NCBI GenBank assembly: GCA_016218805.1
Contig: JACRCW010000025.1
Location: 1,646-65,645 of the forward strand
Reading direction: 5' to 3'
Length of the DNA stretch: 64,000 nt
Source: Deltaproteobacteria bacterium
GTDB lineage: Bacteria > Myxococcota > JACRCW01
In this document: positions 15,918-59,512 of the stretch, in pieces
Layout: each line of letters opens with the position of its first letter
Numbering within the stretch: the first letter of the stretch is position 1
Notes under the pieces: model-generated
The model's database searches: none
The model's input: the letters and a program-made list of their open reading frames with translations, nothing else
What the model was told of the DNA's origin: nothing
Translations under genes and position numbers: made by a program

Positions 15918-16010
15918 GGCGCGAGAACGCTCCGCTGGGACCGAGAACGATTTGGGTAACACAAAGTCGTGAGCGGCCTCAAGGTGGACGCCGTGCTCAG
16001 CGCGCCTCCA

Positions 16011-17366: not shown

Positions 17367-17377
17367 GGCCGCCTAGC

Positions 17378-19479: not shown

Positions 19480-19545
19480 GCGCCGGTTGTAGCAGCGCGG
19501 GGTGATCCGGGCGAAAGGAGGGGCACCGTCAGCCGCCGGGCTTGA

Positions 19546-19628: not shown

Positions 19629-19702
19629 AGGACAGACGGCTGACGGTGGCGGGCTTCATATGGGAGTGCCGTCGGCGGCGTCAAGAGCGATGTGGCGACC
19701 GT

Positions 19703-33241: not shown

Positions 33242-33346
33242 CCGGGACCGCCCACGGCCGCCCCGCCGCGCGCGGTTTGCGCGATCCGATATTGATATTG
33301 ACTTTCATTTTCAGAATGCGCTACCGGTTGGACACGGAGGTGGCGC

Positions 33347-34039
33347 GTGTCCGTTGTTGCAGGCGTGCTGGTGGTGGCCATGACGGCGGGCGGACTGCCC
33401 GGCGGCACGGTGCGGCACGTGTCCCGCATGACCGGGGCGCTGTTGGAGGTGGTGACCGCGTCACCCGGCGCGCTGGTGCGCGTGGACGGTGAAGTGCGCG
33501 GCCGCACACCGGTGCGGGTGGCCGGCCTGGCGCCGGGAGTGCACCGCGTGGAACTCAAGGGCGGCGGCGTGGATTCCGCCCGGTCGGTGGACATGGATGA
33601 CGGCATGCTGGTCCGTGTGGAGGCGGACGCCACCGGCGTGCGCGTGCGCAGCGGGCCACTGGCGGACACCAGCCCGGCCGCAGCGGGTTCCGCTTCGGAC
33701 GCGCCGGCGGCGTGGCGGCCGGACGTGTCGTCGTTGCGCAGCCTGCTGGCGCAGCCCTGGGTGTATGCGGCGGCGGCCTGCACCGGGTTGGCGCTGCTGG
33801 GCGCCGGCTTGCTGTGGACCTCCACGCCGGACCGGTTCCCCGTGCTGCGCCGCCTGCCGCTCCACGTGGAGCCCTGGCAATACACCGCGGCGCGTTGGGT
33901 TTCCGTGGGCGCCGTTGCCACGGGGCTGGTGCTCACCGCGGCGCTGTGGGTGGTCCCGGCGCTGCCCAGCCTGGCGGCCCTGCTCCACCGTGACCGCGCA
34001 GCGGCGGCGGCGCCGCCGCCGGACGCCACGGCCGGCTGA
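33347..34039 (+). CDS. PEGA-domain membrane protein
   Basis: PEGA motif ALLEVVTASPGALVRVDGEVRGRTPVRVAGLAPGVHRVEL; C-terminal TM helices; GTG start preceded by GGAGGTG. Confidence 0.6.
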   Translation: MSVVAGVLVVAMTAGGLPGGTVRHVSRMTGALLEVVTASPGALVRVDGEVRGRTPVRVAGLAPGVHRVELKGGGVDSARSVDMDDGMLVRVEADATGVRVRSGPLADTSPAAAGSASDAPAAWRPDVSSLRSLLAQPWVYAAAACTGLALLGAGLLWTSTPDRFPVLRRLPLHVEPWQYTAARWVSVGAVATGLVLTAALWVVPALPSLAALLHRDRAAAAAPPPDATAG

Positions 34040-35894: not shown

Positions 35895-37928
35895 GTGCCG
35901 GGACCGTGGACGCGGGCATCCTGCACCGCCTCCACGACGGGAGCACCCCTGGCCCGACTCCGCCCCCACGTCCTGCGCGCGCTCCTCCTCAAGGAGGCGC
36001 GCGAGGTCCTGCGCGACCGGCGCACCCTCCTGCTGACGCTGGCGCTGCCCACCATCATCTACCCCGTGTTCATCGCCGGCCTGGGCGAGATCTCCGCCGC
36101 GGCCACGCTCAGCCTGCGTGCGCGGCCCATCAGCGTGGTTGTTGCCGCAGAGGTCCCGGAGGATGTGCGCCGCGCCCTGCGCGCGGCGGAACGGGTCACC
36201 GTGCGCGCCGGCGCGCCCGAGGAGGAGGTCCGCGCGGGCCTGGCGGAGGCGGGCGTGGGTGCGCGGCCGCGCCCGCGGGGGGACCACGCGCTGGTGGTCT
36301 ACGTGGACCGTTCGCGTGATGAGAGCAGCGCCGCGGCGGAGCGCGTGAACCGCGCCATTGCCCGCGCCCGGGACGCGCGGCTGCAGGCGCGCGTGGCCGC
36401 GCTGGGCATCCCCCGTGAGGACGTGGAGCCGCTCCCCGCGGAACAGCGCAATGTCTCGTCGGGCGAGCGCATGCGTTCATACATGGCCAGCCGCATGCTG
36501 CCCTTCCTGCTCATTGTGCTGAGCCTGGTGGGCGCCACGGCCACCGCCGTGGACATCACCGCGGGCGAACGCGAACGCGGCACCCTCCTCACGCTGCTCT
36601 CCACGCCGGTGCACGCGGCGGAGGTCGCCGCGGCCAAGCTGGTCACGGTGGCCGCCGTGGCGCTGGCCAGCGGGCTGGTCAACGTGGTGGCGCTGGCCCT
36701 CACGCTGACCTCGTCACTGGGCCAGGGCGCGGCCGAGTTCTCCGCCGGGCTGGACGCGCGCCTGCTGCTGGGCACCATGGCCGCGCTGCTGCCCACCTCG
36801 TTGTACGGCGCCGCGCTGCTGCTGGGCCTGGCCGCGCTGGGGAAGACCACCAAGGAGGCGCAGGCCTCTACCGCTCCCGCGCTGTTCCTGGCGCTGGGCC
36901 TGTCCGCCGTCAGCATTGTGCCCGGCGTGCGCGCCAACCTCATGCTGGACGCGCTCCCCGTTGCCGGGCCCGCGCTGCTGATGCGGGACCTGGTCATGGG
37001 CGACGCCACGCTGGGCCAGGGCCTGGCCGTGCTGATCTCCAGCGCGCTGACCCTGTGGCTGATGGTGGCCTTTGCCGCGCGCGTGCTGATGAGTGAACCC
37101 ATGCTCTCCGCGCACCTGTCCGCCTCCGCCGTCCTGCGCGAGCTGGGCGGCGACCGGCGACCCACGCCGCTGACCGCCGCGCTCGTCGCCTCGCTGCTGC
37201 TGGGCGTGGTGGTCTACGCGGGCCCGGCGCTGCAGGGCGCGGACCTCCCGCTGGGCCTCCTGGGAACGCTGGCGCTGCTGGCCGCCTGCCCGCTGCTGCT
37301 GCTGCGCGGCCTGGGGCTGCTGTCGGGCCCGCTGCTGGGATTTGGACGGCGGCCGGACGGCGGCGCGCTGGCCGCCGCGGTGCTGTGGGGCCTGGCGCTG
37401 TTGCTGCCGCTGTCCGCGGGCACCCGCGCGCTGGTGCGCCTGATGGGCATGGACGAGGCCGCCGAGGCGCTGGAGGAGGCGCTGCGCGCGCTCATGGAGG
37501 GCCAGCAGCACGGCGGCATGGCGCTGCTGCTCGTCGGCCTGGCGCCGGGTTTCCTGGAGGAGGTGGCCTTCCGCGGCGCGCTGCAGGGCGTGCTGCTGAG
37601 GGTGACCACGCCGGGGCGCGCGGTGCTGGCGCAGGCGGTGGCCTTTGGGCTGGCGCACCTGAGCGTCATCCGCTTCCCGGGGACCTTTGCGGTGGGGCTG
37701 CTGTTGGGCGCGCTGCGGTGGCGCTCGGGGTCCATCTGGCCGGGCGTGCTGATGCACTCGCTGCACAACGGACTGGCCACCGCGCTGGTAGTGCTGGGCG
37801 TGGCGGCCGAGGGCGGTGACGACGAACTCCCGGCCGCGCTGCTGGGCGGGTGCGTGGCGGCGCTGGTGGCGGGCGGGTGGCTGCTGCAGCGGGTGCGGCC
37901 GCCGGTCAGCGACGTCGGAAGAACGTGA
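35895..37928 (+). CDS. fusion protein: ABC-2 family transporter permease (N) plus CPBP/CAAX intramembrane metalloprotease (C)
   Basis: N-term LKEAREVLRDRRTLLLTLALPTIIYPV and 6 TM helices (ABC-2 permease); C-term CPBP motifs FLEEVAFRGALQ, FGLAHL, MHSLHN; GTG start. Confidence 0.7.
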   Translation: MPGPWTRASCTASTTGAPLARLRPHVLRALLLKEAREVLRDRRTLLLTLALPTIIYPVFIAGLGEISAAATLSLRARPISVVVAAEVPEDVRRALRAAERVTVRAGAPEEEVRAGLAEAGVGARPRPRGDHALVVYVDRSRDESSAAAERVNRAIARARDARLQARVAALGIPREDVEPLPAEQRNVSSGERMRSYMASRMLPFLLIVLSLVGATATAVDITAGERERGTLLTLLSTPVHAAEVAAAKLVTVAAVALASGLVNVVALALTLTSSLGQGAAEFSAGLDARLLLGTMAALLPTSLYGAALLLGLAALGKTTKEAQASTAPALFLALGLSAVSIVPGVRANLMLDALPVAGPALLMRDLVMGDATLGQGLAVLISSALTLWLMVAFAARVLMSEPMLSAHLSASAVLRELGGDRRPTPLTAALVASLLLGVVVYAGPALQGADLPLGLLGTLALLAACPLLLLRGLGLLSGPLLGFGRRPDGGALAAAVLWGLALLLPLSAGTRALVRLMGMDEAAEALEEALRALMEGQQHGGMALLLVGLAPGFLEEVAFRGALQGVLLRVTTPGRAVLAQAVAFGLAHLSVIRFPGTFAVGLLLGALRWRSGSIWPGVLMHSLHNGLATALVVLGVAAEGGDDELPAALLGGCVAALVAGGWLLQRVRPPVSDVGRT

Positions 37929-38565
37929 ACTCGCCGCTCATGTCATCCGCCAGGCGGTCAAACGCGGCCGGCCCGAACAGGTAGCTGTACTCCTCGCCGT
38001 GCGCGCGCGCCCACGCCTGCAGGTAGCGCTTGAGATCCCCCGTCTCCGGCCGGGCCTCTTCGGGCTCCGGCGCCGGCGGCTCCGCGCCGGCGGTGATGGG
38101 CGCGGGCTCCATGGGCAGATCCAGCGTCCAGGGCGGCGGCTCATCCGGCTCCAACCGGTGCTGCTTCATCCAGTCCAGGATGTACTGGTGCGCCAGCACG
38201 TCGCGGAAGGTGAACCAGCGCTTGCGCTCGTCCGCGTATTGCGTGACCACGTCCTTGAAGCGCCGGAACGCGCCCTTGCCCACAATGCTGTCCTGCAGGC
38301 GCGTCTTGAGCTCCGCGTGCACCACGGTGGCAATGAAGCGTTCCATCATCCGGTACTGCTCGCGGCTGGGGATGGGCTCCACCCGGGCAAAGTTCTCCGG
38401 CCCCTCCGCCACGCGTTTGGCCAGCGCGTCGGTCGTGTCGTCGCCCAGCACCGTCACCACCTCGCCGGAGGCGCGGTCCACGTAACTGCGCGCATCCGGC
38501 GAATGGTTCTCAAAGGCGCTCTCCAGGCTCGCCCAATCCATGTGCAGCGTCCGACCCGTCATCAT
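37906..38565 (-). CDS. hypothetical protein (conserved-looking, Trp/Arg-rich DUF-like)
   Basis: 219 aa, MMTGRTLHMDWASLESAFENHSPDARSYVD...; 23-nt convergent overlap with ABC-2/CPBP gene. Confidence 0.5.
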   Translation of the reverse strand: MMTGRTLHMDWASLESAFENHSPDARSYVDRASGEVVTVLGDDTTDALAKRVAEGPENFARVEPIPSREQYRMMERFIATVVHAELKTRLQDSIVGKGAFRRFKDVVTQYADERKRWFTFRDVLAHQYILDWMKQHRLEPDEPPPWTLDLPMEPAPITAGAEPPAPEPEEARPETGDLKRYLQAWARAHGEEYSYLFGPAAFDRLADDMSGEFTFFRRR

Positions 38566-38587
38566 CCAACCTCCGTGTGCGCGCCGT

Positions 38588-38935
38588 TCATCCCGCGGCG
38601 TTCAGGACCGCCCGCAGCTCCATGGACAGTTCGTCCGCCATCATAAGCCGCACCACCCCCGCCGCCCGCAAGGACGCCACCTCGCCCGGCAACACCGTCT
38701 CCCACACACCCAGCACCGGCACGCCCGCCCCGCCCGGTAGGGCGCGCAGGGCCGCCACGTCGGCGGCGCAACCCGGGGCGGCCCATCGGATCACCAACGC
38801 CGGCGCCGTGTCACCCCACCACGCCGCGGCCGGCCCCGCCCGGCCCTCCACCGCCACCCGCGGCGGCGCACACCCCGCCGCCCGACGGAGCCACGCCTCC
38901 CCCATGTCCCACAGCACCACCCGGATGCGCTGCAT
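38588..38935 (-). CDS. hypothetical small protein (possible degenerate receiver-like fold)
   Basis: 115 aa ORF 22 nt upstream of previous gene; weak support. Confidence 0.3.
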   Translation of the reverse strand: MQRIRVVLWDMGEAWLRRAAGCAPPRVAVEGRAGPAAAWWGDTAPALVIRWAAPGCAADVAALRALPGGAGVPVLGVWETVLPGEVASLRAAGVVRLMMADELSMELRAVLNAAG

Positions 38936-39001
38936 TGCCCCGGCACACTAGGGACGTGCCGCGCCCCGGGCCAACGCCGCGCGCGGGGCCCGGGTAAAGT
39001 T

Positions 39002-39029
39002 TTGACCCACGGCGCCCGTGGGTTACGGT
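39002..39029 (+). promoter_or_regulatory. candidate sigma70-type promoter (-35 TTGACC, -10 TACGGT) with a 7-bp perfect palindrome CCCACGG-cgc-CCGTGGG in the spacer
   Basis: TTGACC-16 nt-TACGGT about 30 nt upstream of kinase ATG (39060); palindrome 39006-39022 overlaps spacer (operator-like). Confidence 0.3.
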
Positions 39030-39059
39030 GCCTGATTGGCAGACCCGATCGGGGAAGTC

Positions 39060-41234
39060 ATGGGCGAGAAGTTCGGAAACTACGAGCTCGTGCGCCGCAT
39101 TGCGCAAGGCGGCATGGCCGAGGTGTTCCTCGCCCGTTTCACGGGCGTCGAAGGCTTCGAGCGGTGGCTCGTCATCAAGCGGATGCTGCCCGAGCTGGCC
39201 ATCCGCAAGGACTTTGTCGAGATGTTTCTCGACGAGGCCCGGCTCGCCGCGCGGTTCAACCACCCCAATATTGTGCTGGTGCATGAGCTGGGTGAAAAGA
39301 ACGGCAGCTATTTCATGGCCATGGAGTACGTGGACGGGCCGCACCTGGGCGCCCTGTTCGCGCACAGCCTGCGCAAGAAGTCCCCCATGCCCGTGTCCCT
39401 GTGCTGCTACGTGCTGGCCCGCGCCGCTGAGGGCCTGCACCACGCGCATGAGCTCAAGGACCGTGACGGCACGCCGCTGTCCATTGTCCACCGGGACGTG
39501 TCCCCGCAGAACATCCTCATCAGCCGTGATGGCGACGTGAAGGTGATGGACTTTGGCGTGGCCAAGGCCGCCAGCCAGACCACGCAGACGCGCACCGGCG
39601 TGGTCAAAGGCAAGGTCGGCTACATGTCCCCGGAGCAGTGCCTGGCCAACCCGGTGGACCGCCGCACCGACGTGTTTGCGCTGGGCATTGTCCTGTACGA
39701 GCTGGTCACGCGCCGCCGCCTGTTCCGCGACAAGAGCGACCTGGTGGTGATGCAGAAGATCACGACGGAGGAGGTGCCGCCGCCTTCGCAGGTCAACCCC
39801 AAGATTCCGCGCGAGTTGGACGAGCTCATCCTCAAGTCCCTGCGCCGGGAGAAGGACGCGCGCACCCCGGACGCCCTCACGCTGTCCGACGAGCTGGACA
39901 CCTACCTGGCGGGCAGCGGCGAAGCGGTCACGCGCAACACCCTGGCCCGCTGGATGAACGAGAACGCCACCGACCTGGTCCCCAGCGGCGAGCTGGTGCA
40001 GAACCCCACGCCGTCCTGGACGGGGGCGCAGAGCCCGTCCGGCGGCTCGCGGCCGGGGATGGCCTCCACCGCCCCCACGCCCCCGCGCTCCAATGACGCG
40101 GAGACGCGCGCGCTGAGCACCGCCCACCTCAACGAAGGCACCCAGGACGAGACCCCCGCGTCGTCCGGCGCCGCCGAGGGCGGACTGGCCCTTCCGCCCG
40201 ACACGCCGGTGGACACCGGTGGAAAACCGGCCGGGCCCAGCCGGGCTCCGCTGGTGGCCGGCGCCGTGGTGGCCGTGGTGGCGCTGGGCGGCACCGCGGC
40301 GTTCTTTGCCCTGGGCGGGCTGAGCTCCACGGGGACCCTCCGGCCGGTCACCCCCACCACCACCTCGGGGAGTTCCGGCCAACCCGAGGCGCCGCCCTCC
40401 TCCGCCGCCCCCACCCCGCCGCCGGCCAGCGCGGGCAGCCCCGCCACCGCGGCAGGTGGCGCCCCCGCACCGGACATCACGCTGGGCGCGCTGCGGATCC
40501 TGGTGGACCCGCCGCAGGCGGAGGTCACCGTCAACCGCGTGTCCCGCGGCACCTGTGAGAACGGCGCGGTCCTGGTGGACAAGCTCAGCATGGAAAACCC
40601 TGAGGCGCAGGTGGTCCTCAGCCTGGACGGCTATGAGACCCAGCGCATGAGCGTCCCGCTTGTTGGCGGGGATACCATTACGCTGCCCGTCATCCGGCTG
40701 CGCAGGCAGTCCGCCACCGTCCGGCCGGTGCACGGCATCTTTGAAATCACCTCCGACCCGTCCAATCTCAAGGTGAGCATTGACGGGAGGACGGTGGGAC
40801 GGACGCCGCTGGTCAAGCTGGAAGTGAAGGACGGCGCGCACACCATCGTCGTTGAGGCGCCGCCGGGGTACGAGCCATACCGGGACACGTTCAAGAGCGT
40901 GGCCGGGATGAAGCAGTCACTGCCCATCACGCTGCAGAAGGCCGCGCGCCCCCCGCGGGATGACCGCCCCCGGGAACCGGAGGGCACCGGCAAGCTCGTC
41001 GTGGACACCACGCCGTACTGGACCTACGTGTACCTCAACGGCAAGAACCTGGGCGCCACACCCATTGCGCCCCCGGTGGAGGTACCCGCAGGAAAGGTCA
41101 CACTGCGGCTGCGGCGGGACGGCAAGGACGGTTGCACCATTGACGTCACGCGCAGCGTGGAGGTGGCCGCCAACCAGCTCACCCGCAAGTCGTTCACGCT
41201 GGAAGCGCGCGAAGCCAAGGGCACCTGCCAGTAG
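39060..41234 (+). CDS. serine/threonine protein kinase with C-terminal Pro/Ser linker, TM segment and PEGA domains
   Basis: ATG at 39060 (MGEKFGNYELVRRIAQGGMAEV glycine loop), VIKRM Lys, HRDVSPQNILI, MDFGVAK, SPEQ; C-terminal PEGA-like repeats. Confidence 0.85.
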   Translation: MGEKFGNYELVRRIAQGGMAEVFLARFTGVEGFERWLVIKRMLPELAIRKDFVEMFLDEARLAARFNHPNIVLVHELGEKNGSYFMAMEYVDGPHLGALFAHSLRKKSPMPVSLCCYVLARAAEGLHHAHELKDRDGTPLSIVHRDVSPQNILISRDGDVKVMDFGVAKAASQTTQTRTGVVKGKVGYMSPEQCLANPVDRRTDVFALGIVLYELVTRRRLFRDKSDLVVMQKITTEEVPPPSQVNPKIPRELDELILKSLRREKDARTPDALTLSDELDTYLAGSGEAVTRNTLARWMNENATDLVPSGELVQNPTPSWTGAQSPSGGSRPGMASTAPTPPRSNDAETRALSTAHLNEGTQDETPASSGAAEGGLALPPDTPVDTGGKPAGPSRAPLVAGAVVAVVALGGTAAFFALGGLSSTGTLRPVTPTTTSGSSGQPEAPPSSAAPTPPPASAGSPATAAGGAPAPDITLGALRILVDPPQAEVTVNRVSRGTCENGAVLVDKLSMENPEAQVVLSLDGYETQRMSVPLVGGDTITLPVIRLRRQSATVRPVHGIFEITSDPSNLKVSIDGRTVGRTPLVKLEVKDGAHTIVVEAPPGYEPYRDTFKSVAGMKQSLPITLQKAARPPRDDRPREPEGTGKLVVDTTPYWTYVYLNGKNLGATPIAPPVEVPAGKVTLRLRRDGKDGCTIDVTRSVEVAANQLTRKSFTLEAREAKGTCQ

Positions 41235-41332
41235 CTTCACACCCCAACGCGTCATCCCATTGGGTCGGGGTCGGCGCTCGGCCCGGCTTCCAACAAGACC
41301 GGCGAAGTTGTGACCTCACCGAGTTCCCCTGC

Positions 41333-42124
41333 TCAGTTGCTGGGAATGCTTCCGTTGGGACGCGGGGCGGATGAGCTGGCCTCATCCCGCGTGCGCCGTT
41401 CACTGACCCGTGCGCATCCTTCGCCGAAGAAGCACGTCTCGCCATCGGTACATTGGACAGCACCACATGACTCGCGGATCTGTGCGGCCACCTCCAACGT
41501 GACTGAGTTGGGCCATGCCACGGATATCATCCGCCGCAGCTGGACAAGCGTGACCTGCGCTTCCTCAAGAAGACCCGGTCCGTCGCTGGTCTCCTTGTCC
41601 TGCAGGAGGACGCGGTCCCCTTCCATGCAAAAGAACTTGTACATGCCGCTCGCCGTGTATGCGTCGGCTCCGTCGGGCGCGCGGGCAACGCCGGCCGCGC
41701 TCACCACCGCGACAACCCTTGTACCGACCGGGGGAGCACCCTTCCCGTCGCACATCTCGTCGACCCAGCGCCTGGTCCGGATGGTGTGTTCATCGCCCAA
41801 TCGCCAATCAGGGCGACCGCCCGGAAGCGGCTGAAGCGGAGCGGTGAGTTGTTCCAGCACGCGGATGCGGACGAAGCGCCCCTCCGACAGGCCCGTTGGA
41901 TTTCGAGGTCTATCCATGCACGCCTGGACGGGTCCATAGGCGACCTCTTCGGCGATGGTCTCGACCAGGAAGATTCCGTGTTGCGCCCGCCAATCCGCGA
42001 TTTCTGAAATGCGATAGAGGGAGAGCGCACCAGTGCCCGACGGCGGCCCCTCACACGCCAGGTAGCAGCACAAGACCAGCAGGCCCACACGCCCAGAACT
42101 CCGGCCCGGCGCAATTTGGCGCAT
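41333..42124 (-). CDS. lipoprotein of unknown function with atypical (lower-GC) codon usage
   Basis: MRQIAPGRSSGRVGLLVLCCYLAC lipobox; strong SD AAGGAGG 7 nt before ATG; codons tat/gaa/aat/aga/cga frequent, unlike neighbours. Confidence 0.55.
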   Translation of the reverse strand: MRQIAPGRSSGRVGLLVLCCYLACEGPPSGTGALSLYRISEIADWRAQHGIFLVETIAEEVAYGPVQACMDRPRNPTGLSEGRFVRIRVLEQLTAPLQPLPGGRPDWRLGDEHTIRTRRWVDEMCDGKGAPPVGTRVVAVVSAAGVARAPDGADAYTASGMYKFFCMEGDRVLLQDKETSDGPGLLEEAQVTLVQLRRMISVAWPNSVTLEVAAQIRESCGAVQCTDGETCFFGEGCARVSERRTRDEASSSAPRPNGSIPSN

Positions 42125-42371
42125 GAAAGGCCTCCTTTCAGCGTGTCGGTGTCAGTGCGGGTCCTTCCGACTGCAGGCAACCGACCGAAAGGACCGCAAC
42201 ACAACACAGCCCGCGAATGGTCATCATGATCCCTCCGCGTGAGGATCCTCGGTGGCCCGCGGTTGGGGTTCAAGCGAACCGACTGCGCCGCCAACGCGTG
42301 CGTCGCCGCGGGTGCATCGCCGTGCGTTCAGCCCTTGTGCCCGCCCCTTCCCGAGTCCTAGCTTGCTCGCC

Positions 42372-43835
42372 ATGCACAAGCGGTGGCTCGCCTACGGAGC
42401 CTGCGTTCTCCTCGTCGCCACGGGTGCCGGGGCGGAGACCCCGCCGGCGCCCGACAAGGTCGCGCCCAAGGCGCCCACGGAGGACGACGCCAAGGCGCGC
42501 TTCCTCCGCGGCAAGGAGCTGTACGCGCAGGGCGACTTTGACGGTGCCATCCGCGAGTGGCAGGCGGCGCACGAGCGGGCACCCAAACCGGAGCTGCTGT
42601 TCAACATTGCGCGGGCGTGTGAGCAGGCGGGCCGCACCGAGGACGCCATCCGCAACTACCGCCGCTACCTGGACGAGGCGAAGGACCCGCCCGACCGTCC
42701 CAGCGTGGAGGCCACCATTGCGCGCCTGCAGGAGCAGCAGGACGCCCGGGCCAGCAAGGAGGGTGAAGCGCGCAAGCAGGAGCAGGCGGCCGAACACCTG
42801 CGCAAGGGCCGCGAACTCTACCAGGCCAGCCGCTACGCCGACGCGCTCAAGGAGCTGCAGGCGGCTTTTGAGCTCGTTCCGTCCGCCACGCTGGTTTACA
42901 ACATGGCCAAGACGCGCGAGCGGTTGGGGGACCTGCGCGGCGCGCTGGGTGACTACCGCCGCTACCTGGAGATGGAGCCGCGGGCACCGGACCGCTCCGA
43001 CGTGGACTTTGTAATCAAGGCGCTGGAGAAGAAACTGGGCCAGTCCATCAACGAGCTGGCCCTGGAGTCCAGCCCGCCCGGCGCGGAGGTCTACCTGGAC
43101 GACGGGACCGCCCTGGCTGGTCAGACGCCGCTCACGCTCCGCGTGGTGGCCGGGCCGCACAAGCTCCGCGTGGTGCGCAACGGTTTTGAGCCGGCGGTGC
43201 GGGACTTCACCATGCCGGAGGACCGGCCGCTGACCCTGACGTTTGACCTGCGGCCGCTGGAGAACGTGGGCTGGCTCAGTGTGGACTGCGACCAGGAAGG
43301 CAGCCACATCTTCCTGGACGGCACCATCCTGGCGCTCACGCCCTACCGGGACCGGCGTGCGCTGCCCGCGGGCCGCCACCAGGTGGTCCTGGAGCGCACG
43401 GGCTACGAGCGGTTTGTGCAGGTGGTGGACGTCAAGCAGGGCAAGGAGACGCACGTGCGCGTACGGCTGCAGTCCGCCGGGGGCCGCTCCGTTCTCCCGT
43501 TGGTGCTGGCGCCGCTGCTGGGGACGCCGCTGGTGCTGGCGGGCGCCGCCGCGGGCGGCCTGTCCGGCGCGTTGTTCTACCGGGCGCGCTCCGTCATTGA
43601 CGGGACGCCGGCCTGGCAGCGCGCGCTGGGCGGGATGGGCGCGGCCGCCGCCGCCGCCGTGGTGCTGGTGCTGACCGGAGCGGGCGTGTGCGGCGGCATC
43701 GTGGGACTGTGGGTGGCGCTGGGCCTGGTGGGCCGCAGCGGCAGTGACGTCAGCGTGCGCCCCGGGCCGGCCACCGCGGAGACCGCACCCGCCCCGACGG
43801 CCAAGCCACCCGCGCCCGCCGGAGGTGCGCCGTGA
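42372..43835 (+). CDS. secreted TPR-repeat protein with PEGA domains and C-terminal TM/Ala-Gly-rich region
   Basis: Start MHKRWLAYGACVLLVATGAGA signal; four TPR-like units; PEGA-like modules. Confidence 0.7.
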   Translation: MHKRWLAYGACVLLVATGAGAETPPAPDKVAPKAPTEDDAKARFLRGKELYAQGDFDGAIREWQAAHERAPKPELLFNIARACEQAGRTEDAIRNYRRYLDEAKDPPDRPSVEATIARLQEQQDARASKEGEARKQEQAAEHLRKGRELYQASRYADALKELQAAFELVPSATLVYNMAKTRERLGDLRGALGDYRRYLEMEPRAPDRSDVDFVIKALEKKLGQSINELALESSPPGAEVYLDDGTALAGQTPLTLRVVAGPHKLRVVRNGFEPAVRDFTMPEDRPLTLTFDLRPLENVGWLSVDCDQEGSHIFLDGTILALTPYRDRRALPAGRHQVVLERTGYERFVQVVDVKQGKETHVRVRLQSAGGRSVLPLVLAPLLGTPLVLAGAAAGGLSGALFYRARSVIDGTPAWQRALGGMGAAAAAAVVLVLTGAGVCGGIVGLWVALGLVGRSGSDVSVRPGPATAETAPAPTAKPPAPAGGAP

Positions 43836-44974
43836 CCTCCCGCCTGCCCCGCGCGCTGGCCGTGCTGGCCCTGGCCGTGTTTGCCGCGGCGGGCAGCTGC
43901 CCGTTCTCCGGGCTGCCCGTGCCGTGCGCCACGCCGGAGATTCCCGTCTCCACCGGCCTCACCTTCCTTGTGGGCGGGGACCCCACGTGCTCGGAGAATG
44001 GGACCCCGCTGTGCGCCAACTCCATTGGTGATGACGGTGACCGCACCATCCCGGAGCACCTGGTGAGCCTGGACCCGTTCCTGGTGGACCAGACGGAGGT
44101 CAGCAACATCCAGTACCGGGAATGCGTGGACCGCGGCGCCTGCGGCCTCCCGTTGGACTGCGTGCCGGGCGCGCCGTTCCTGGCGTTGGGGGCGCGCGTC
44201 AATCCCGCCGGCGGCTGCCGGTTTGAGCTGCGCCAGTATGACGACCTGCCGGTGGTGGCGGTGAGCTGGGACGACGCCCGGCGGTACTGTGAATGGCGCG
44301 GCAAGAGCCTGCCCACCGAGGCGCAGTGGGAGCGGGCCGCCGTGGGCCCGCGGGGAGAGGGCGAGGCCGCGCGCAAGTTCCCGTGGGGCGACGAGGCGTC
44401 CTTTGAAGGGCGCGCGCAGGTCACGCCCGAGGACCGGTGCGACGGATTCCTCAAGGACCGGCCCGCGCCCGTCCGGGACGAGGCCCGCCGGGCAGGGCGC
44501 TCCGTGGAGGGCGTCTATGACCTGGCGGGCAACGTGCGCGAGTGGACCCTGGATGACTTTGACCCGGCGCTCTACTGCCGGGACACCACGCCCTCCGCCG
44601 AGGAACGGGCGGCCCACGGCGGCGCGGACTGCGGGGGCGCGGAGCACCGCGAGTGCCCGCGCACCGACCAGGCGCCGCTGCCCCCCGCCGTCGTGGCCAA
44701 CCCGGTCTACGGCGGCAGCGCCGCGCGCAAGGTCGTCCGCGGGGGGGCGTTCTGCTCCACCAACGTCTCGCAGGTGCAGCATGACTGCGACCTGCACGCG
44801 CGCTCACGCGCGGGACTCCAGCGCGACTTCCAGACGGCGGACCTGCCTTCCGTGCCCCTGCTCACCGCGCGCCTGGCTGGCCTGTACAATGACGCCCAGC
44901 TCACCGGCTTCCGGTGTGTGCGCAACGGCCTGGTGCCGGACCCCGCGCTGTCCTACTGCCCGCTGCTGCCCTGA
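43832..44974 (+). CDS. formylglycine-generating enzyme (FGE-sulfatase/SUMF1) family lipoprotein
   Basis: Lipobox LAVFAAAGSC; FGE signature VSWDDARRYCEWRGKSLPTEAQWE, LAGNVREW, RGGAF; GTGA overlap with upstream stop. Confidence 0.8.
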   Translation: MTSRLPRALAVLALAVFAAAGSCPFSGLPVPCATPEIPVSTGLTFLVGGDPTCSENGTPLCANSIGDDGDRTIPEHLVSLDPFLVDQTEVSNIQYRECVDRGACGLPLDCVPGAPFLALGARVNPAGGCRFELRQYDDLPVVAVSWDDARRYCEWRGKSLPTEAQWERAAVGPRGEGEAARKFPWGDEASFEGRAQVTPEDRCDGFLKDRPAPVRDEARRAGRSVEGVYDLAGNVREWTLDDFDPALYCRDTTPSAEERAAHGGADCGGAEHRECPRTDQAPLPPAVVANPVYGGSAARKVVRGGAFCSTNVSQVQHDCDLHARSRAGLQRDFQTADLPSVPLLTARLAGLYNDAQLTGFRCVRNGLVPDPALSYCPLLP

Positions 44975-46722
44975 GGCGCGGCGCCCGGGGACACGGGCAG
45001 CAGGTGGTCACGCAGCCAACGCTCCTCCTGTTCCACCACGTCGGCCGCGCCCAGGCGCTGTGCCAGCACCCGGCGCTCCTCGTGCAGCCGGCGCGAACAG
45101 CACGCCCGGGCCACCGCTTCGTCATACGCCTCCAGCGCCTGGGGTAGCGCGCCGCGGGCAAACCGCCCGCGGGCCAGCACCATGGGGCCGGCGGGCAGCC
45201 ACGGTGCCAGGCGGGCAGCGCGGATCGCGGCCTCGTCGTGCTCCCGCCACAGTGCGGCCTGCTCATCCGGGTCCTGCGTGCGCTGGATGGACAGCAGGAT
45301 CTCCTCGGCCAGCGTGAGCTGCGCCCGCGCGTCGTAGCTCAGCAGCTGCGCGCCCGCCCGCGTGGCCGCCAGGTTGGGCTCTTCTCCCGGCAGGCGCGGT
45401 ACACCGCGGTCCGCCAGCCCCACGCCGGCGCATACCCACGCGGCGGCCAGGAAGCCTGCGCCCGCCGCCATCCGCGCGGGCGCGGGAAGCTCGTCCAGGT
45501 CCTGCGGGGAGGCCGTGCGCGCGCACAGCCAGCCCAGCGCAATCCACAGGCCCAGGCCCGCCACGTGGTGCGCGTCATAATCCACCTGGTGGTGCAGGAT
45601 GGACGCCAGCACCCCCGTCGCCGCCAGCACCTCCGGCAGCTCCCCCCGCGCGGCCCACCGCAGCGCCCACGCCGCCAGCGCCCCGTACATCACCACCGCC
45701 AGCAGGCCGCCCAGCGGACCCAGCTCCACCATCATCTGCAGGACCCCGCTGTGCACGTAGGCGGCGTAGCGGCGGGGCGGTGACAGGTGGTTGAACGCGG
45801 ACTCAAAGGCACCGGCCCCCACGCCCCACGGCGGCAGGTGCGCCAGCATGGCCGCGGCATTGGCCCAGTCCTCCAGCCGCTCGCGCCCGCTCATGGCGGC
45901 GGACGCATCCGGCCGCCATGACCGCAACCACCACACCAATGCCAACGCCGCGGCCACCGCCAGCCACGCCAGCAGCACCGTGCCCCACCGGCGCCTGCGC
46001 CAGCCCGCCGCCGTGATCCCCAGCACCACCGCCCCGCCCAGCGCCAGCGCCGCCCCCACCGACTGGGTCATCAGCAGCACCAGGCCGCCCAGGGACGCCA
46101 GCGCCAGCCAGGTGGCGCGGACGCCGGGGCGGCCGCCTTCGCGCGCGGCCAGGGCGGCCAGCATGCCCAGCAGTGGGAGCAGAAAGCCCGCCAGCATGTC
46201 CGGCGAGCTGAACGGTCCCATGGCGCGGTGCCGCGTCACCCACAGCTCCGCGAACCCGCGCGCCTGGGCGTCCTCCACCGTGGCCGCCAATTCCCCGGCG
46301 GCCTCCAGGCTCCCGCCCAGCTGCCGCAGCGCGGACAGCGCGCACGCTGCCACCGCCACGCCCGCGCCCAATTCCAGCGCCCGCTCCTGCCCGCGGGATG
46401 CCAGCAGCAGCGCGGCCCCGCCGGCCCACAGCGTCACAGTCCACGCGGACTGCCCGGCATCCACGCTCCACGTCATGCTGGCCAGCTGCCAGGCCAGCAG
46501 GGCCAGCACGGGTATCTCCAGGCGCACGCGGGGTGCGCGCTCCATCACCGCCAGGGCCAGCAGGCCCAGCGGCGCGGTGGCCATGGACAAGCCGGGCAGC
46601 AGCACCTGGGGCACCACGGGCGCGGCGGCGGCCAGCAGCAGCAGCACGTGCTGGGCGCGGCCGCTGAGGCCCCGCAGCCCCGGGCGCTCTTCCGTGGGCA
46701 GGGATGCGGGGGGCGTGCTCAC
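44953..46722 (-). CDS. O-antigen ligase (Wzy_C) family polytopic membrane protein with C-terminal TPR-like soluble domain; candidate protein O-oligosaccharyltransferase
   Basis: about 10 TM helices; O-antigen-ligase-like loop; 4-nt overlap with upstream ABC permease gene; 22-nt convergent overlap with FGE gene. Confidence 0.55.
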   Translation of the reverse strand: MSTPPASLPTEERPGLRGLSGRAQHVLLLLAAAAPVVPQVLLPGLSMATAPLGLLALAVMERAPRVRLEIPVLALLAWQLASMTWSVDAGQSAWTVTLWAGGAALLLASRGQERALELGAGVAVAACALSALRQLGGSLEAAGELAATVEDAQARGFAELWVTRHRAMGPFSSPDMLAGFLLPLLGMLAALAAREGGRPGVRATWLALASLGGLVLLMTQSVGAALALGGAVVLGITAAGWRRRRWGTVLLAWLAVAAALALVWWLRSWRPDASAAMSGRERLEDWANAAAMLAHLPPWGVGAGAFESAFNHLSPPRRYAAYVHSGVLQMMVELGPLGGLLAVVMYGALAAWALRWAARGELPEVLAATGVLASILHHQVDYDAHHVAGLGLWIALGWLCARTASPQDLDELPAPARMAAGAGFLAAAWVCAGVGLADRGVPRLPGEEPNLAATRAGAQLLSYDARAQLTLAEEILLSIQRTQDPDEQAALWREHDEAAIRAARLAPWLPAGPMVLARGRFARGALPQALEAYDEAVARACCSRRLHEERRVLAQRLGAADVVEQEERWLRDHLLPVSPGAAPQGSSGQ

Positions 46723-47465
46723 TTGAGATCCCGGCGCTCAAACACAATGCCCGCCACCAGCACCAGCGCCACGGCGTGAACCACCGCGTCAGCCAGCACC
46801 AGCGCCGTGCGGGAGGCATCCAGCGGGTGGGCGTTGAAGTCCAGCCGCTGCAGGTTGGGCATGGCCCAGGCGGCCAGGCGGAGCATCCAGGCCAGCGCGG
46901 CCTCGCCTTGGGTTTCTGCGTAGCGGCGGAGTTCGTCGCCCCCCAGACCCACCAGCCACGTCGCCAGGCCGCACACGGCGGCCACCGTGGTGCCGGCAAA
47001 CGCCGTGAAGACCAGCGTCGCCGCCACCACCAGCGCCGCCTCCGCCCCCAGCCCCAGCAGCGGCACCAGCAGGCCCGCTCCGGGCGCATCCGACACGGCA
47101 ACGGCCAGGCGCAGCAGCAGCCCGGCCAGCAGCGTGTTCACCCACAGCAGCGCGGACAGGCCCAGGAACTTCCCCGCCATCAGCTGCATGCGGGTGACCG
47201 GCCGCACCAGCACGGTCAGGAGCATCCGCCGGTCATCCGCGCCGCCCATGCTCTGCACGGCCATCATCACCGCCAGCAGCGCGTTGACGCCGGACAACAG
47301 CGCCAGCGCGGTGTCCCGCAGCGTGCGCCCTTTCTCCCCAATGGTGAGCCCCTCCAGCAGCAGGGCCATGCCCACCGCAAACACGGCAAACACCGCCAGG
47401 TTGACAAACACCTGGCTGCGGACGCCTTCGCGGAACGTGGCGCGCGCAATGACCAGGACCCTCAT
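46719..47465 (-). CDS. ABC-2 type transporter permease (PilI-like)
   Basis: Start MRVLVIARATFREG at 47465 (ATGA overlap with ATPase stop); 6 predicted TM helices. Confidence 0.7.
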   Translation of the reverse strand: MRVLVIARATFREGVRSQVFVNLAVFAVFAVGMALLLEGLTIGEKGRTLRDTALALLSGVNALLAVMMAVQSMGGADDRRMLLTVLVRPVTRMQLMAGKFLGLSALLWVNTLLAGLLLRLAVAVSDAPGAGLLVPLLGLGAEAALVVAATLVFTAFAGTTVAAVCGLATWLVGLGGDELRRYAETQGEAALAWMLRLAAWAMPNLQRLDFNAHPLDASRTALVLADAVVHAVALVLVAGIVFERRDLK

Positions 47466-48415
47466 GGCGAGTTCCTCCCCTCCACCGGTGCCAGCGCGTG
47501 TGCCTGCAGGACCAGTTCCTCCAGCGCGCCCTGGCGGGGGAGGACCCCCAGCACCTGGCAGCCTGATGCCAGCGCCAGCTCCAGGGCGGCGTTGATGCTG
47601 CCGGGGTCCTGCAACTCCCACACGTGCACGGGCCCCGCCGTGCGGACCGGCCCCAGCTTCTCCAGCGCCCCCAGCGTCCCCGGCCGCCCGCCGGACAGGC
47701 GGACCTCCACGCTGGTGGTGGTGCCCGCGGCCACCTCAGCCAGCGTTCCGGCCCGGAACACGCGCCCGCGCGCCAGGACCGCCACGTCGTCGCACAGCGC
47801 TTCCACGTCCGCCAGCACGTGTGACGAGAACAGCACCGTGCACCCCCGCGCGTGCTCCGCACGGATGATTTCCCGGACATGGTGGCGTCCCAGCGGGTCC
47901 AACCCGCTCATGGGCTCATCCAGCACCAGCAGGTCCGGCAGCGCGCACAGCGCCACGGCAATACCCAGGCGCTGCTGCATGCCCTTGGAGTACGTGTGCA
48001 GCCGGTCGCCCGCGGCGCGGCCCAGCCCCACGCGCTCCAGCAGCCCGTCACGGCGCCCGGTCCAGCCCGCGTCCCGGACCCCGGCCAGACCGGCCTGGAA
48101 GTCCAGCACCTCCGCACCGGTGAGGAAGCGCGGGTAGACCGGCAGCTCCGGCAGGTAGCCCAGGCGTGCACGGGCCCGGAGGCTCCCGAGCGGCTCGCCC
48201 AGCAGCGTGCCGCGGCCCGCGTCAGGGCGGACAAAGCCCAGCAGCATCCGCAGTGTGGTGGTCTTCCCGGCGCCGTTGGGGCCAATCAGCCCCACCACGT
48301 GCCCCGCGGGCACCTGCAGCGTGACGTCGTCAACCGCCAGCACGCGCCGGCCCCAGAAGCCCACGCGGAACACCTTGCGCAGGTGTTGGACCTCGCAGGC
48401 CAGGGGCGCGCTCAC
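47462..48415 (-). CDS. ABC transporter ATP-binding protein (PilH-like)
   Basis: Walker A GPNGAGKTT, signature LSGGQ-like YSKGMQQRL, Walker B LLVLDEP, H-loop. Confidence 0.85.
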   Translation of the reverse strand: MSAPLACEVQHLRKVFRVGFWGRRVLAVDDVTLQVPAGHVVGLIGPNGAGKTTTLRMLLGFVRPDAGRGTLLGEPLGSLRARARLGYLPELPVYPRFLTGAEVLDFQAGLAGVRDAGWTGRRDGLLERVGLGRAAGDRLHTYSKGMQQRLGIAVALCALPDLLVLDEPMSGLDPLGRHHVREIIRAEHARGCTVLFSSHVLADVEALCDDVAVLARGRVFRAGTLAEVAAGTTTSVEVRLSGGRPGTLGALEKLGPVRTAGPVHVWELQDPGSINAALELALASGCQVLGVLPRQGALEELVLQAHALAPVEGRNSP

Positions 48416-49326
48416 GGCGCGCTCCCGGGCGGCGGCGGAGCATCATGCCCGCGCAGGTGGATGCGCGGTACCGGCGCGGCCAGATTCACGCTGCCGTCAC
48501 CTGCAAGGACCACAGGCTGACCGGCCGCCCGGGGAACCCCGCCCAGCAGCCCGGCGGCCACCACTTCATCCAGGGTGGCCGGAAGACGCCCCTCCCGCTG
48601 GCGGTAGCTGGCCACCGCCGCCTCCACGTTGCGCAGCGTGCACTCCACCTTCAGGTCCCGCACGCGTGCAGCCAGCGCCGCCTGTCCCTGCCCTGGCGGG
48701 CTCATGTCCAGGATCTGCTCCGCGGTGCGCTGGGCAATGAGGCACGCCTCGTCACGCGACCGCAGGCGGCCCGCGGCTTGCGCCAGATAGGGCGGCGCGT
48801 CTGGCAGCGCCGACGCCCGCTCCCACGCCGCAGCGGCGGCCGTGGTATTGAACAACGCCGTGAGCTGCAGGGCCCCCTCCAGGAACGGGAAGCGCCATTG
48901 GTTGGGGAAGTGGCTGCCGGCCTCGTGGGCCACCGCGGCTGCTTCACGCTCCCCGCCCTTCTCCGTCGACAGGATCAGCGCACCTACCCACCACGCGTCG
49001 GCAAACCCGCTGTCCAGGTCCAGCACCAGGCGCAACAGGGGTTGCAGCGCGGGACGGACGGCCTGGTGGCGGTTGTCCCCCGCGTAGCTGGCAAACCTCA
49101 GCCATTGGATGTCCGCCGCGGCCCGGCCCCGCAGCAGGCCGTGGAACAGCGCCACCGGGTAGGAGGGTACGTTGGGGTGCATCACGGGCGGCCTGGCGCC
49201 CTGGACCTGCCCGTCCAGCCACGCATGCGTGCCTGCCGCAGCCACCAGCAACAGGGCGGGGACGGCCCGCGTCGTGGCCGCCATCCCTCGAGACGTGCTC
49301 GGCGGTATTGGGGATGCTCGGCTCAT
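48412..49326 (-). CDS. hypothetical secreted protein (PilG-like accessory protein of ABC transporter)
   Basis: Start MSRASPIPPSTSRGMAATTRAVPALLLVAAAGTHA (signal) at 49326, CAT at 49324-26 checked; ATGA-type overlap with ATPase gene. Confidence 0.5.
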   Translation of the reverse strand: MSRASPIPPSTSRGMAATTRAVPALLLVAAAGTHAWLDGQVQGARPPVMHPNVPSYPVALFHGLLRGRAAADIQWLRFASYAGDNRHQAVRPALQPLLRLVLDLDSGFADAWWVGALILSTEKGGEREAAAVAHEAGSHFPNQWRFPFLEGALQLTALFNTTAAAAAWERASALPDAPPYLAQAAGRLRSRDEACLIAQRTAEQILDMSPPGQGQAALAARVRDLKVECTLRNVEAAVASYRQREGRLPATLDEVVAAGLLGGVPRAAGQPVVLAGDGSVNLAAPVPRIHLRGHDAPPPPGSAP

Positions 49327-49595
49327 GCCTGCAACAGCCTGCCGGGTGTGGGTGGGAACGGGTCCGGCAAGGGATTGCTGAAGTAGTCCATCACAGCAGG
49401 GACGCGCGAGCTTCAAAGGGACGCGGCCCCGTCCGGGAAACGGCCCAGCGCCGGGGCCCGCCCGGGAGCAGCAGCTTGTTGGAACGGCTGGTGGCTTGTT
49501 GCGGACCGTCTCACGCACTCGGCGGGCGAACGCGCAACCAAGCCCGCGGAAGGCGTGGAACCGACCAACGACCCAGCGCGCGGGCCGGTGCCGGC

Positions 49596-49638
49596 AAAGA
49601 CAACGAGACACCCCCGACAGACCAGCCGGGGGTGTCTC
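49596..49638 (-). terminator. rho-independent terminator downstream of pilA
   Basis: Perfect 12-bp GC-rich inverted repeat GAGACACCCCCG-10 nt-CGGGGGTGTCTC followed on transcript by GUUGUCUUU. Confidence 0.55.
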
Positions 49639-49653
49639 TCGTCATTCACTGAT

Positions 49654-50067
49654 TCAGTTGCAGGCGTTGGTTCCGTTGGCGGGTTGCGCGCTGTTCTGGT
49701 CGATGGTCCAAATGTCATCGGCACCAGAGGTGTTGATGCGGACCCGGTTGTCCTGCGCGGTAGCTGAGAAGTTGCTGCCGCCCGTGATGGTGTAGTTGTA
49801 GTACTTGGTGTTGCCGACGGTCTTGGTGTCCAGGCCGCCGAACGACGTGAGCTGGTCGAGGTTCAGATAGGAGCCGAACTCACCGTTGTAGGCGAGCTGG
49901 GTGGTGTACACGGCCTTCAGGCCCGTCTTGGCCTCGGTCTGCTTGGCCTTGCACTGGAACTTGAGGAAGTTGGGAATGGCGATGGCTGCCAAGATGCCGA
50001 TGATGGCGACGACGATCATCAGCTCGATGAGCGTGAAGCCCTTGGCAATCTTCTTGAGTGCGGACAT
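49654..50067 (-). CDS. pilA: type IV pilin (PilA-like, 137 aa)
   Basis: ATG at 50067 with SD GGAGGA; prepilin leader [10 protein letters not shown] then [28 protein letters not shown]; Ser/Thr/Asn-rich C-domain ending ...NGTNACN. Confidence 0.85.
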
Positions 50068-50119
50068 GAGGATCCTCCGTTGGGTGTTCGCGCGTGCACA
50101 GCGCGGCAGGCGTGCCTCT

Positions 50120-50135
50120 AGCACGGGGCGAGCCA
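50120..50135 (-). promoter_or_regulatory. candidate sigma54 (-24/-12) promoter for pilA: TGGCTC-N5-GTGCT
   Basis: On minus strand TGGCTCgccccGTGCT with GG/GC spacing identical to TGGCAC-N5-TTGCW, about 50 nt upstream of pilA ATG; AT-rich palindrome TTTTCG-ct-CGAAAA about 25 nt further upstream (plus 50157-50170). Confidence 0.35.
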
Positions 50136-50269
50136 CCGGCAACAGGATCTTGCCCGTGGTTTTCGCTCGAAAAACGGGCAGGTGCGGCTGACCACTGACG
50201 AACTTTGTCACTGCCTACAGTCACGCAGTGACGCGTGCCGTCACCCAGGCACCGGGGTATGGGGGGCGG

Positions 50270-51196: not shown

Positions 51197-51238
51197 CGCG
51201 GTTGCAAAGCGCGCGCGCGGCGGCCATGAGTCCGCCCC

Positions 51239-59325: not shown

Positions 59326-59512
59326 CCGCCGCCCGTGACCCTCGCCTGCCGTCGCCGCCACCATACGCGAGCGCGCAGTGAACCGGCCAATCTTCCGCCC
59401 TGCAACTCCCCGGATCTGCGGGCCACTTGACCCGCTCCCACCTTCCCCCACGCGGGTTGACCGGCGGGCGGGCGCGCGCGATGGGGGGCGCCCCCGCACC
59501 GGTTCCACCCCC

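Follow-up and report, generated by a model that had tools for sequence, protein, structure and literature searches.

What does a protein belonging to the formylglycine-generating enzyme (FGE) family do in a region that encodes no sulfatase? The question is raised by the last of three same-strand genes lying within positions 39,002 to 44,974 of a 64,000-nucleotide stretch of DNA, called here the window, from a contig of a Deltaproteobacteria bacterium (JACRCW010000025.1, assembly GCA_016218805.1). The first gene encodes a receptor serine/threonine (Ser/Thr) kinase with PEGA repeats, the second a TPR-PEGA protein, and the third a cysteine-rich protein with an FGE-like domain. The last gene is most likely not a formylglycine-generating enzyme, and its product would instead be a lipoprotein that is secreted, rich in disulfides, and built on the FGE fold as a mere scaffold, to which clade-specific insertions have been added. 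Judged from its orthologues, it forms with the TPR-PEGA gene a tightly coupled two-gene unit (the pair), usually but not obligatorily found behind the PEGA kinase.

The window has a G+C content of about 72%, and because spurious open reading frames (ORFs) abound at such a composition, genes were called by third-position G+C (GC3), which is 0.90-0.92 in the kinase, TPR-PEGA, and FGE-like genes. The proteins of the region are identical to the NCBI entries MBI5494087-MBI5494091, labelled "MAG: Deltaproteobacteria bacterium" (MAG, metagenome-assembled genome), and one related contig has been binned as Myxococcota. The features at the center of this analysis are as follows.

39060..41234, plus strand: receptor Ser/Thr kinase gene (Pkinase and PEGA domains)
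41333..42124, minus strand: inserted 263-aa gene (MBI5494088.1), outside the conserved module (called from GC3, NCBI annotation, and distant homologues)
42372..43835, plus strand: TPR-PEGA gene (TPR and PEGA domains)
43832..43835, plus strand: GTGA start/stop overlap (GGAGG 7 nt upstream)
43832..44974, plus strand: Cys-rich FGE-fold lipoprotein gene (PF03781)

Is the last gene a formylglycine-generating enzyme?

The product of the last gene matches the Pfam family FGE-sulfatase (PF03781) at 3e-33, and the match covers only positions 24-195 of the 255 in the profile, so that the part holding the FGE active site lies outside it. The active-site region was compared by aligning the orthogroup with human FGE by MAFFT L-INS-i, since an hhalign alignment ended at residue 243, short of the active site; the human reference sequence is identical to PDB 5ssy over residues 72-374. 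The loop reads GGAFC308STNVSQVQH317DC319DLHARSR in the window protein versus GGSYMC336HRSYC341YRYRCAAR in human FGE. The canonical C-x4-C pair (C336-x4-C341), which in the copper-dependent enzyme binds Cu(I), is absent, and the cysteines are spaced C308-x10-C319 instead. The distance from the GG to the invariant Arg is likewise longer, 21 residues versus 17 in the human enzyme. C308, H317, and C319 are invariant in the 7 orthologues. The last two belong to a stretch of 6-7 residues that generic FGE-like proteins lack, and they occur in none of the other 113 aligned homologues.

The rest of the protein is equally distinctive. All orthologues have a hydrophobic N-terminus that ends in a cysteine, which in the window protein is the lipobox residue C23, and 16 further cysteines are conserved. 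Besides the loop insertion, the orthogroup has three more insertions relative to generic FGE-like proteins (four in total), and its distinguishing features include a Cys-rich N-terminal extension, an inserted segment of about 40 residues after DDFDP..YC, and one of about 20 residues before GFRC. The pair C153-C362 is probably the equivalent of the human structural disulfide C218-C365, and the second human disulfide (C235-C346) appears to have been lost on both sides. The residue that retains a lipoprotein in the inner membrane when it follows the lipid-modified cysteine is Asp in E. coli and Lys in Myxococcus. Because the orthologues have a lipobox followed by P, L, T, G, or A, none of which is a known retention residue, the protein may be located in the outer membrane.

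An AlphaFold2 model of the protein (predicted local distance difference test score, pLDDT, 80.9; predicted template-modelling score, pTM, 0.85) finds FGEs first in a Foldseek search, with template-modelling (TM) scores of 0.64-0.74 normalised to the target, followed by CalU17, EgtB, pFGE, PorK, and OvsA. By sequence, the best solved relatives are again true FGEs (2e-17), and then pFGE, CalU17, PorK, OvsA, and EgtB. The Foldseek matches span catalytic and non-catalytic members, all at probability 1.0, so the fold alone cannot part the two. Among the NCBIfam models, none reaches its cut-off. The best is GldK (TIGR03525), which scores 70.3 bits against a cut-off of 350 and covers only residues 131-248; PvdO gives a weak match, and the scores of EgtB and SenA, 47-56 bits, lie below their cut-offs of 360-420. 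A DinB-like iron-binding domain was not found with either Pfam or NCBIfam.

Could the protein nonetheless be a genuine FGE that matures sulfatases encoded elsewhere in the genome? The PF03781 match, the true FGEs at the head of both the sequence and the fold searches of solved structures, and the names given to the orthologues by JGI auto-annotation would all fit. They are outweighed by the missing cysteine pair in a different and longer loop, by a Pfam match that stops at profile position 195, and by the export of the protein as a lipoprotein. The surroundings argue the same way. The 64-kb window has no match to the sulfatase family PF00884 and no sulfatase signature of the C/S-x-P-x-R type in any of its six frames; no sulfatase occurs in about 10 orthologous loci, and no conserved C/S-x-P-x-R motif is present in the kinase, TPR-PEGA, Wzy_C, or 263-aa proteins. 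A true FGE is thus scarcely credible here. The initial annotation had stated that the window lacks a sulfatase and had proposed a role other than sulfatase maturation, and both statements stand.

How tightly is the lipoprotein gene tied to its neighbor?

The TPR-PEGA protein encoded just upstream matches several TPR families and PEGA (3e-23) in Pfam and has two TPR blocks and two PEGA domains. Its predicted topology comprises an N-terminal signal peptide, a periplasmic TPR/PEGA part, two C-terminal transmembrane helices at aa 374-392 and aa 426-444, and a tail rich in Pro and Ala. NCBIfam gives weak matches to BamD, PilW, and Tgl.

The GTG start codon of the FGE-like gene at 43832 overlaps the TGA stop codon of the TPR-PEGA gene at 43833-43835, as had been pointed out before, and a GGAGG motif lies 7 nt upstream. 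The TPR-PEGA gene stands directly before the FGE-like gene in all seven independent lineages recovered (the window; L001/L002; L003; L004/L005/L094; L089; L090; and L091/L092), and a 4-nt [A/G]TGA overlap with a purine-rich Shine-Dalgarno-like motif is found in every one of them. The overlap is ATGA in all but the window. Across these lineages the FGE-like genes share at most 69% nucleotide identity. In L003, the JGI gene call (P0006; 4893 versus 5073) lacks the first 60 residues, and translation of the upstream sequence restores both the lipoprotein signal and the ATGA overlap. This conservation strongly supports translational coupling of the two genes.

Both proteins belong to small, sharply bounded groups. 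The FGE-like protein has six full-length relatives (48-61% identity), all metagenomic, after which scores fall from 326 to 171 bits and only generic FGE-like paralogues follow. The TPR-PEGA protein has eight to nine relatives, beyond which scores drop from 259 bits to 103. Each orthologue could be traced to its contig, and a metagenome scan with an orthogroup-specific C-terminal motif returned two loci, both already known.

What kind of kinase precedes the pair?

The kinase gene is likely to start at ATG 39060 rather than at the NCBI-annotated TTG 39036, which is probably 8 codons too long, because the orthologues begin MGE[KR]FGNYEL. In Pfam, its product has a Pkinase domain at aa 8-268 (PF00069, 6e-37) and PEGA (3e-24). 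A hydropathy scan, read together with the N-terminus, predicts a cytoplasmic kinase domain, a Pro/Ser-rich linker, a single transmembrane helix (aa 398-416), and about 300 periplasmic residues, which hold two PEGA repeats significant in Pfam and a third PEGA-like one. This kinase-PEGA architecture is shared by more than 100 homologues.

The motifs of a Hanks-type kinase are present (VIK38, HRD144, DFG164, and SPE190), with one peculiarity. The catalytic loop (39489-39512, aa 144-151) reads HRDVSPQN, in which the usual Lys of HRDxKxxN is replaced by Ser. The same HRD[IV]SPQN with Ser for Lys occurs in more than 110 of 123 PEGA-kinase homologues (P0125-P0243), and by this comparison the substitution is a subfamily-wide trait of PEGA kinases.

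A kinase-PEGA gene lies upstream of the pair in five lineages (the window, L001/L002, L003, L091, and L094). The gap between kinase and pair is about 42 bp in L001/L002, L091, and L094, and in L003 an extra 154-aa Cys-rich ORF lies between them. In the window, the space is occupied by the gene at 41333-42124 on the opposite strand. The kinase, TPR-PEGA, and FGE-like genes are therefore not one uninterrupted unit here. The initial annotation had described three co-directional envelope signalling genes; it was right about their domains and their strand, but it overlooked the gene that splits them, as well as the fact, taken up below, that the kinase also occurs without the pair.

The intervening gene encodes 263 aa, among them 10 cysteines, and is annotated by NCBI as a hypothetical protein (MBI5494088.1). 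An AAGGAGG Shine-Dalgarno motif precedes the ATG by 6 nt, and the N-terminus of the product resembles that of a lipoprotein. Its G+C content is 0.65 and its GC3 0.72, versus 0.90 for the neighbors. Only 12 distant homologues of similar length were found among 1.84 billion representative proteins, the best with 36% identity (E = 2e-26). No counterpart appeared in any orthologous locus when the 1.1-kb insert was compared by blastn and tblastx with all fetched loci, and a repeat search around the gene revealed no insertion-sequence-like ends and no target duplications. Because of the lower GC3 and the lack of a counterpart in orthologous loci, the gene can be taken as a recent insertion that has parted the kinase from the pair in this genome.

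Other junctions differ as well. The ORF of L003 (2926-3390, plus strand) is rich in CxxC repeats, has a GC3 of 0.92, and matches nothing in Pfam. Upstream of the TPR-PEGA gene in L089, two genes lie on the minus strand (47-1530), one of them with a weak Zeta_toxin-like P-loop. From the loci at hand, the kinase/TPR-PEGA junction looks like a recurrent insertion site.

Are the three domains linked elsewhere?

The domains of these proteins are found joined in other bacteria. A profile scan of genome contigs with the orthologue alignment yielded 80 FGE-like loci from many phyla. The profile was dominated by the generic LP[TS]EAQWE motif and the scan returned paralogues of 25-39% identity, so it serves only to count kinase fusions and does not describe the distribution of the orthogroup in GTDB genomes. 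Among the matches listed, 14 of the 80 loci carry a kinase and an FGE-like domain fused in a single ORF, one locus having two such fusions. The protein P0061 is one such fusion of kinase and FGE, and P0095 joins FGE to PEGA in the order PEGA-PEGA-FGE. Since kinase-PEGA, PEGA-FGE, and kinase-FGE combinations all occur as fusions, they lend Rosetta-stone-type support to a functional link between the three proteins.

The initial annotation had noted that FGE-like domains recur next to or fused with Ser/Thr kinases in Myxococcota. The recurrence is borne out, but it extends beyond Myxococcota, and it had already been published. A 2005 paper (PMC1262709) described bacterial Ser/Thr kinases with fused FGE-like (DUF323/NirV) domains, and many bacterial FGE-domain proteins without the catalytic cysteines carry kinase, caspase, DinB, NACHT, or PEGA extensions (PMC5915273).

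A separate observation concerns L020, from a groundwater Deltaproteobacteria MAG of 72% G+C. At 7430-19899, this locus has an ORF with a kinase-FGE fusion followed on the same strand by three ORFs with kinase matches and one with PEGA.

What could the module do?

The reading we favor, and hold tentatively, is that of a conserved envelope module in which the non-catalytic FGE-fold lipoprotein and the TPR-PEGA protein form a periplasmic complex and serve as an accessory co-sensor or docking unit for the PEGA kinase. Because the start codon of one gene overlaps the stop codon of the other, the lipoprotein would be made in a fixed proportion with the membrane-anchored TPR-PEGA protein. The two would most likely form a complex in the periplasm, with the FGE fold acting as a docking or ligand-binding hub, much as PorK/GldK does with PorN. 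In most lineages the pair would be co-transcribed behind the receptor kinase and would most likely dock on the PEGA-repeat periplasmic part of this kinase through PEGA-PEGA or PEGA-FGE contacts, thereby modulating its activity.

The precedent for such a hub comes from the lipoproteins PorK, GldK, and GldJ, in which an FGE fold acts as a docking platform (PMC12421860, PMC12635249). In PorK/GldK, insertions in the fold bind the operon partner PorN, and an invariant cysteine makes intermolecular disulfides (PMC12421860, PMC12635249).

Several observations weigh against the co-sensor reading. The orthologues number only 7-9, all of them from metagenomes. In the window itself, the inserted gene uncouples transcription of the pair from that of the kinase. 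No kinase adjoins the pair in L089, although the contig ends 1.7 kb upstream. The model of the lipoprotein is weak in its insertions, with 10-residue block means of pLDDT of 39-74 over residues 251-290 and of 65 over residues 311-320. The invariant Cys/His loop stands at the former FGE active-site position, which leaves room for residual or new chemistry.

The clearest of these points is locus L093 (3419-5671), which keeps a full-length kinase orthologue of 58% identity without the TPR-PEGA/FGE pair. Its flanks are those of the window, with the UPF0158 gene and a small gene on one side and, on the other, genes for Wzy_C, ABC-2, an ABC ATPase, a pilin-like protein, prepilin peptidase, and an α/β hydrolase. 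The locus is a natural presence/absence polymorphism of the pair. This means that the kinase and the pair are separable and, since the kinase orthologue and its flanks persist without the pair, that the kinase does not need it.

Such separability would also fit a lipoprotein acting as a periplasmic enzyme that forms no formylglycine, such as a PvdO-like oxidase or a thiol-disulfide or metal redox enzyme using C308, H317, and C319. Its substrate would lie in the envelope, the TPR-PEGA protein would be its partner or present the substrate to it, and the kinase would be no more than a neighbor or a regulator. The invariant C-x10-C and His in the very loop that bears the FGE active site are in keeping with this, as is the range of chemistries known for the fold, with EgtB, OvsA, CalU17, and ToxD appearing as structural matches and PvdO as a weak NCBIfam match. 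We consider an enzyme unlikely, however. Neither Pfam nor NCBIfam detects DinB or another catalytic partner domain, no NCBIfam equivalog cut-off is reached, and no candidate substrate motif is conserved in the neighboring proteins. The 16 conserved cysteines of a secreted protein are more simply explained as structural disulfides, and the closest lipoprotein analogues, PorK and GldK, are non-enzymatic.

A bolder form of the co-sensor reading would make the Cys308-x10-Cys319/His317 loop, which lies at the place of the FGE copper site, a working redox or metal center, or a site of reversible intermolecular disulfide formation like Cys343 of GldK, whose state is relayed through the TPR-PEGA protein to the kinase. 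This is a long shot. If it were true, a working center would make the lipoprotein a sensor of thiol/disulfide state (or of Cu) in the periplasm, and in either case the locus would be a new type of envelope module that turns redox signals into phosphorylation.

Is the pair part of the neighboring envelope genes?

On both sides of the module lie genes that recur in related loci, and the window is dense in further signalling genes.

37906-38601, minus strand: UPF0158 gene (GC3 and homology)
38588-38935, minus strand: small 115-aa gene (GC3 0.91, no Pfam match)
44953..46722, minus strand: Wzy_C (O-antigen-ligase-like) gene, convergent with the FGE-like gene and sharing 22 nt with it at the 3' end
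2851-4302 (plus), 8885-10321 (plus), 10337-16010 (minus), 33302-34036 (plus), 58420-59526 (minus): other signalling genes of the window

The block that follows the module has the same order in three lineages (window 44953-52300, L004 2333-8381, L093 5806-13206). It begins with the Wzy_C gene, whose product has a TPR-like C-terminus, and continues with an ABC-2 permease, an ABC ATPase, a gene of unknown function, and a type IV pilin-like N_methyl protein; at its end, on the other strand, stand the prepilin peptidase and α/β hydrolase genes. The block may represent a surface-polymer or pseudopilus system.

Could the pair then be a structural or assembly module of the envelope, tied to these surface-polymer and pilus-like neighbors and with a function that does not depend on the kinase? 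In the window, L003, L004/L005, and L090, a convergent Wzy_C gene adjoins the pair, and the ABC and pilin-like genes lie farther out. PorK and GldK are parts of envelope machines, TPR lipoproteins are often involved in envelope assembly, and the weak BamD, PilW, and Tgl matches are consistent with such a role. Yet the Wzy_C gene, conserved neighbor of the pair though it is, is also present in L093, where the whole Wzy_C/ABC/pilin/peptidase block exists without the pair; the block therefore does not need it. The pair is, moreover, transcribed opposite to the Wzy_C block, and in the five lineages named above it follows the kinase on the same strand, with the short gap already described in three of them. 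An assembly role apart from the kinase is accordingly rated as quite unlikely, and the co-sensor reading is retained.

Other features of the surroundings can be mentioned briefly. The small 115-aa gene runs away from the kinase gene and shares 14 nt with the UPF0158 gene, and its product is 41% identical to that of an 87-aa gene at the equivalent position in L093. In L090, a 251-aa HATPase_c gene (2035-2790, plus strand) starts at the last base of the FGE-like gene, 2035, and precedes the convergent Wzy_C gene. Besides the module, the signalling genes of the window encode a second Ser/Thr kinase, a cyclic-nucleotide (cNMP)-binding/TPR protein, a large response-regulator protein, an FHA-FHA-TPR protein, a small PEGA protein, and a receiver-GGDEF protein. 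An Rfam scan of 38500-45500 gave no credible RNA. A reading as a defense system was rejected, as PADLOC matched the kinase with generic kinase-domain models only (PD-T4-6, MAD6) and the other three proteins not at all.

Is the kinase gene under operator control?

The region upstream of the kinase gene contains the following features.

38936..39059, no strand: divergent intergenic region between the small minus-strand gene and the kinase gene, holding promoter-like boxes (limits from GC3 and homology)
39002..39029, plus strand: promoter-like TTGACC-N16-TACGGT (boxes conserved in five orthologous upstream regions)
39006..39022, no strand: inverted repeat, two perfect 7-bp arms around a 3-nt loop (CCCACGGcgcCCGTGGG), at chance level, lineage-specific, and not supported as an operator

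The two boxes are TTGACC at 39002-39007 and TACGGT at 39024-39029. A generic sigma-70 consensus scan scores the pair below threshold. When five orthologous upstream regions are aligned, however, they keep TTGnnn, TAnnnT 15-17 nt downstream, and TGG just before the -10 box. Because the boxes are conserved in these five regions, the alignment supports a real sigma-70-type promoter for the kinase gene despite the negative scan.

In the spacer between the boxes, 30 nt before ATG 39060, lies the palindrome CCCACGG-cgc-CCGTGGG (39006-39022), just where the initial annotation had placed it and from which operator control was suggested. Is this repeat the operator of a lineage-specific repressor of the kinase gene? 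Its perfect 7+3+7 form, its position exactly between conserved -35 and -10 boxes, and its single exact copy in the window would suit an operator. Such repeats occur at chance frequency: the window holds 17 perfect 7+3+7 inverted repeats versus 13.4 expected from first-order Markov simulations, and 150 perfect 7-bp inverted repeats with loops of 0-10 nt. Variants of the palindrome with at most 2 mismatches number 3, against 2.5 expected. In the four orthologous promoters the boxes are kept but the left arm is not, and the spacers there have at most unrelated short self-complementary stretches. The right arm (CCGTGGG) runs over the conserved TGG(G), and the promoter itself accounts for this; no regulator gene is linked to the palindrome. 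With the repeat at chance frequency and missing from the orthologous promoters, the operator idea is unsupported and very doubtful. Nor is the palindrome a genome repeat, and its presence in the promoter spacer is best regarded as incidental.

What is new, and why does it matter?

The conclusion that the FGE-like gene has no part in sulfatase maturation is right but not new in kind, since associations of FGE-like domains with kinases and with PEGA are already documented. What is new is a discrete, rare, and strictly coupled pair of a TPR-PEGA protein and an FGE-fold lipoprotein with a distinctive conserved Cys/His loop, together with its usual place behind a PEGA receptor kinase in an uncultured clade of Myxococcota.

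Few unexplained extracytoplasmic modules of bacterial Ser/Thr kinases are as common as FGE-like domains, which are greatly expanded in myxobacteria. For example, Minicystis rosea has been reported to have 69 copies (PMC8436480). Compared to the fusions, separate and strictly coupled genes offer a cleaner system for asking what the fold does beside a kinase, be it through a partner, a ligand, or a redox state. The PorK/GldK idea that an FGE fold can serve as a hub for docking would be extended beyond Bacteroidota. On a practical level, annotation labels of the formylglycine-generating-enzyme type on these genes are wrong.

How does the module compare with known systems?

Formylglycine-generating enzyme (SUMF1 and bacterial FGE) and its inactive paralogue pFGE (SUMF2) share the overall fold of the window protein, with TM scores of 0.68-0.74 normalised to the target, and in the window protein the core motifs PVV.V.W, LPTEA.WE, GNV.EW, RGG, and GFRC are kept. 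Unlike them, the window protein has no pair of the C336/C341 type and no equivalent of Ser333, and it has a longer loop, a lipoprotein export signal, and a context without sulfatases.

Another comparison is with the widespread kinase-FGE receptors, which include the chlamydial Pkn1 type and many proteins of Chloroflexota, Planctomycetota, and Myxococcota. Here, too, a Hanks-type kinase is associated with a non-catalytic extracytoplasmic FGE-like domain. In the fusion receptors the two are parts of one protein, whereas in the window the FGE-like module is a separate lipoprotein gene coupled to the TPR-PEGA gene and the kinase itself bears PEGA repeats.

Other members of the family show that the fold can work without catalysis. 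The Tsi3 immunity proteins of type VI secretion have an FGE fold that acts by binding alone (bioRxiv 10.1101/2021.05.21.445229), and the fungal OCTIN is an FGE-domain scaffold without the catalytic cysteines (PMC5915273). In them the domain is only a scaffold for binding proteins or for assembly, as it would be in the window protein. The insertions are different, and the module has no type VI secretion effector context.

Finally, PorK, GldK, and GldJ, which serve type IX secretion and gliding, are lipoproteins of the outer-membrane type in which an FGE fold has been put to a non-catalytic use, with lineage-specific insertions and functional cysteines, features that the window protein appears to share. 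PorK is a significant fold match and GldK the best NCBIfam match. The differences are nonetheless considerable. At 70 bits, the window protein is far below the GldK cut-off of 350; no PorL/M/N (GldL/M/N) or type IX secretion system families are among the Pfam matches of the window genes or the orthologous loci; and the partner is a TPR-PEGA membrane protein and not PorN, with a link to a Ser/Thr kinase in place of a secretion motor. The host is a myxobacterium, while PorK/GldK belong to Bacteroidota, and 16 conserved cysteines stand against the two in PorK/GldK. With these differences in mind, PorK and GldK can be considered the closest working analogy for the window lipoprotein.

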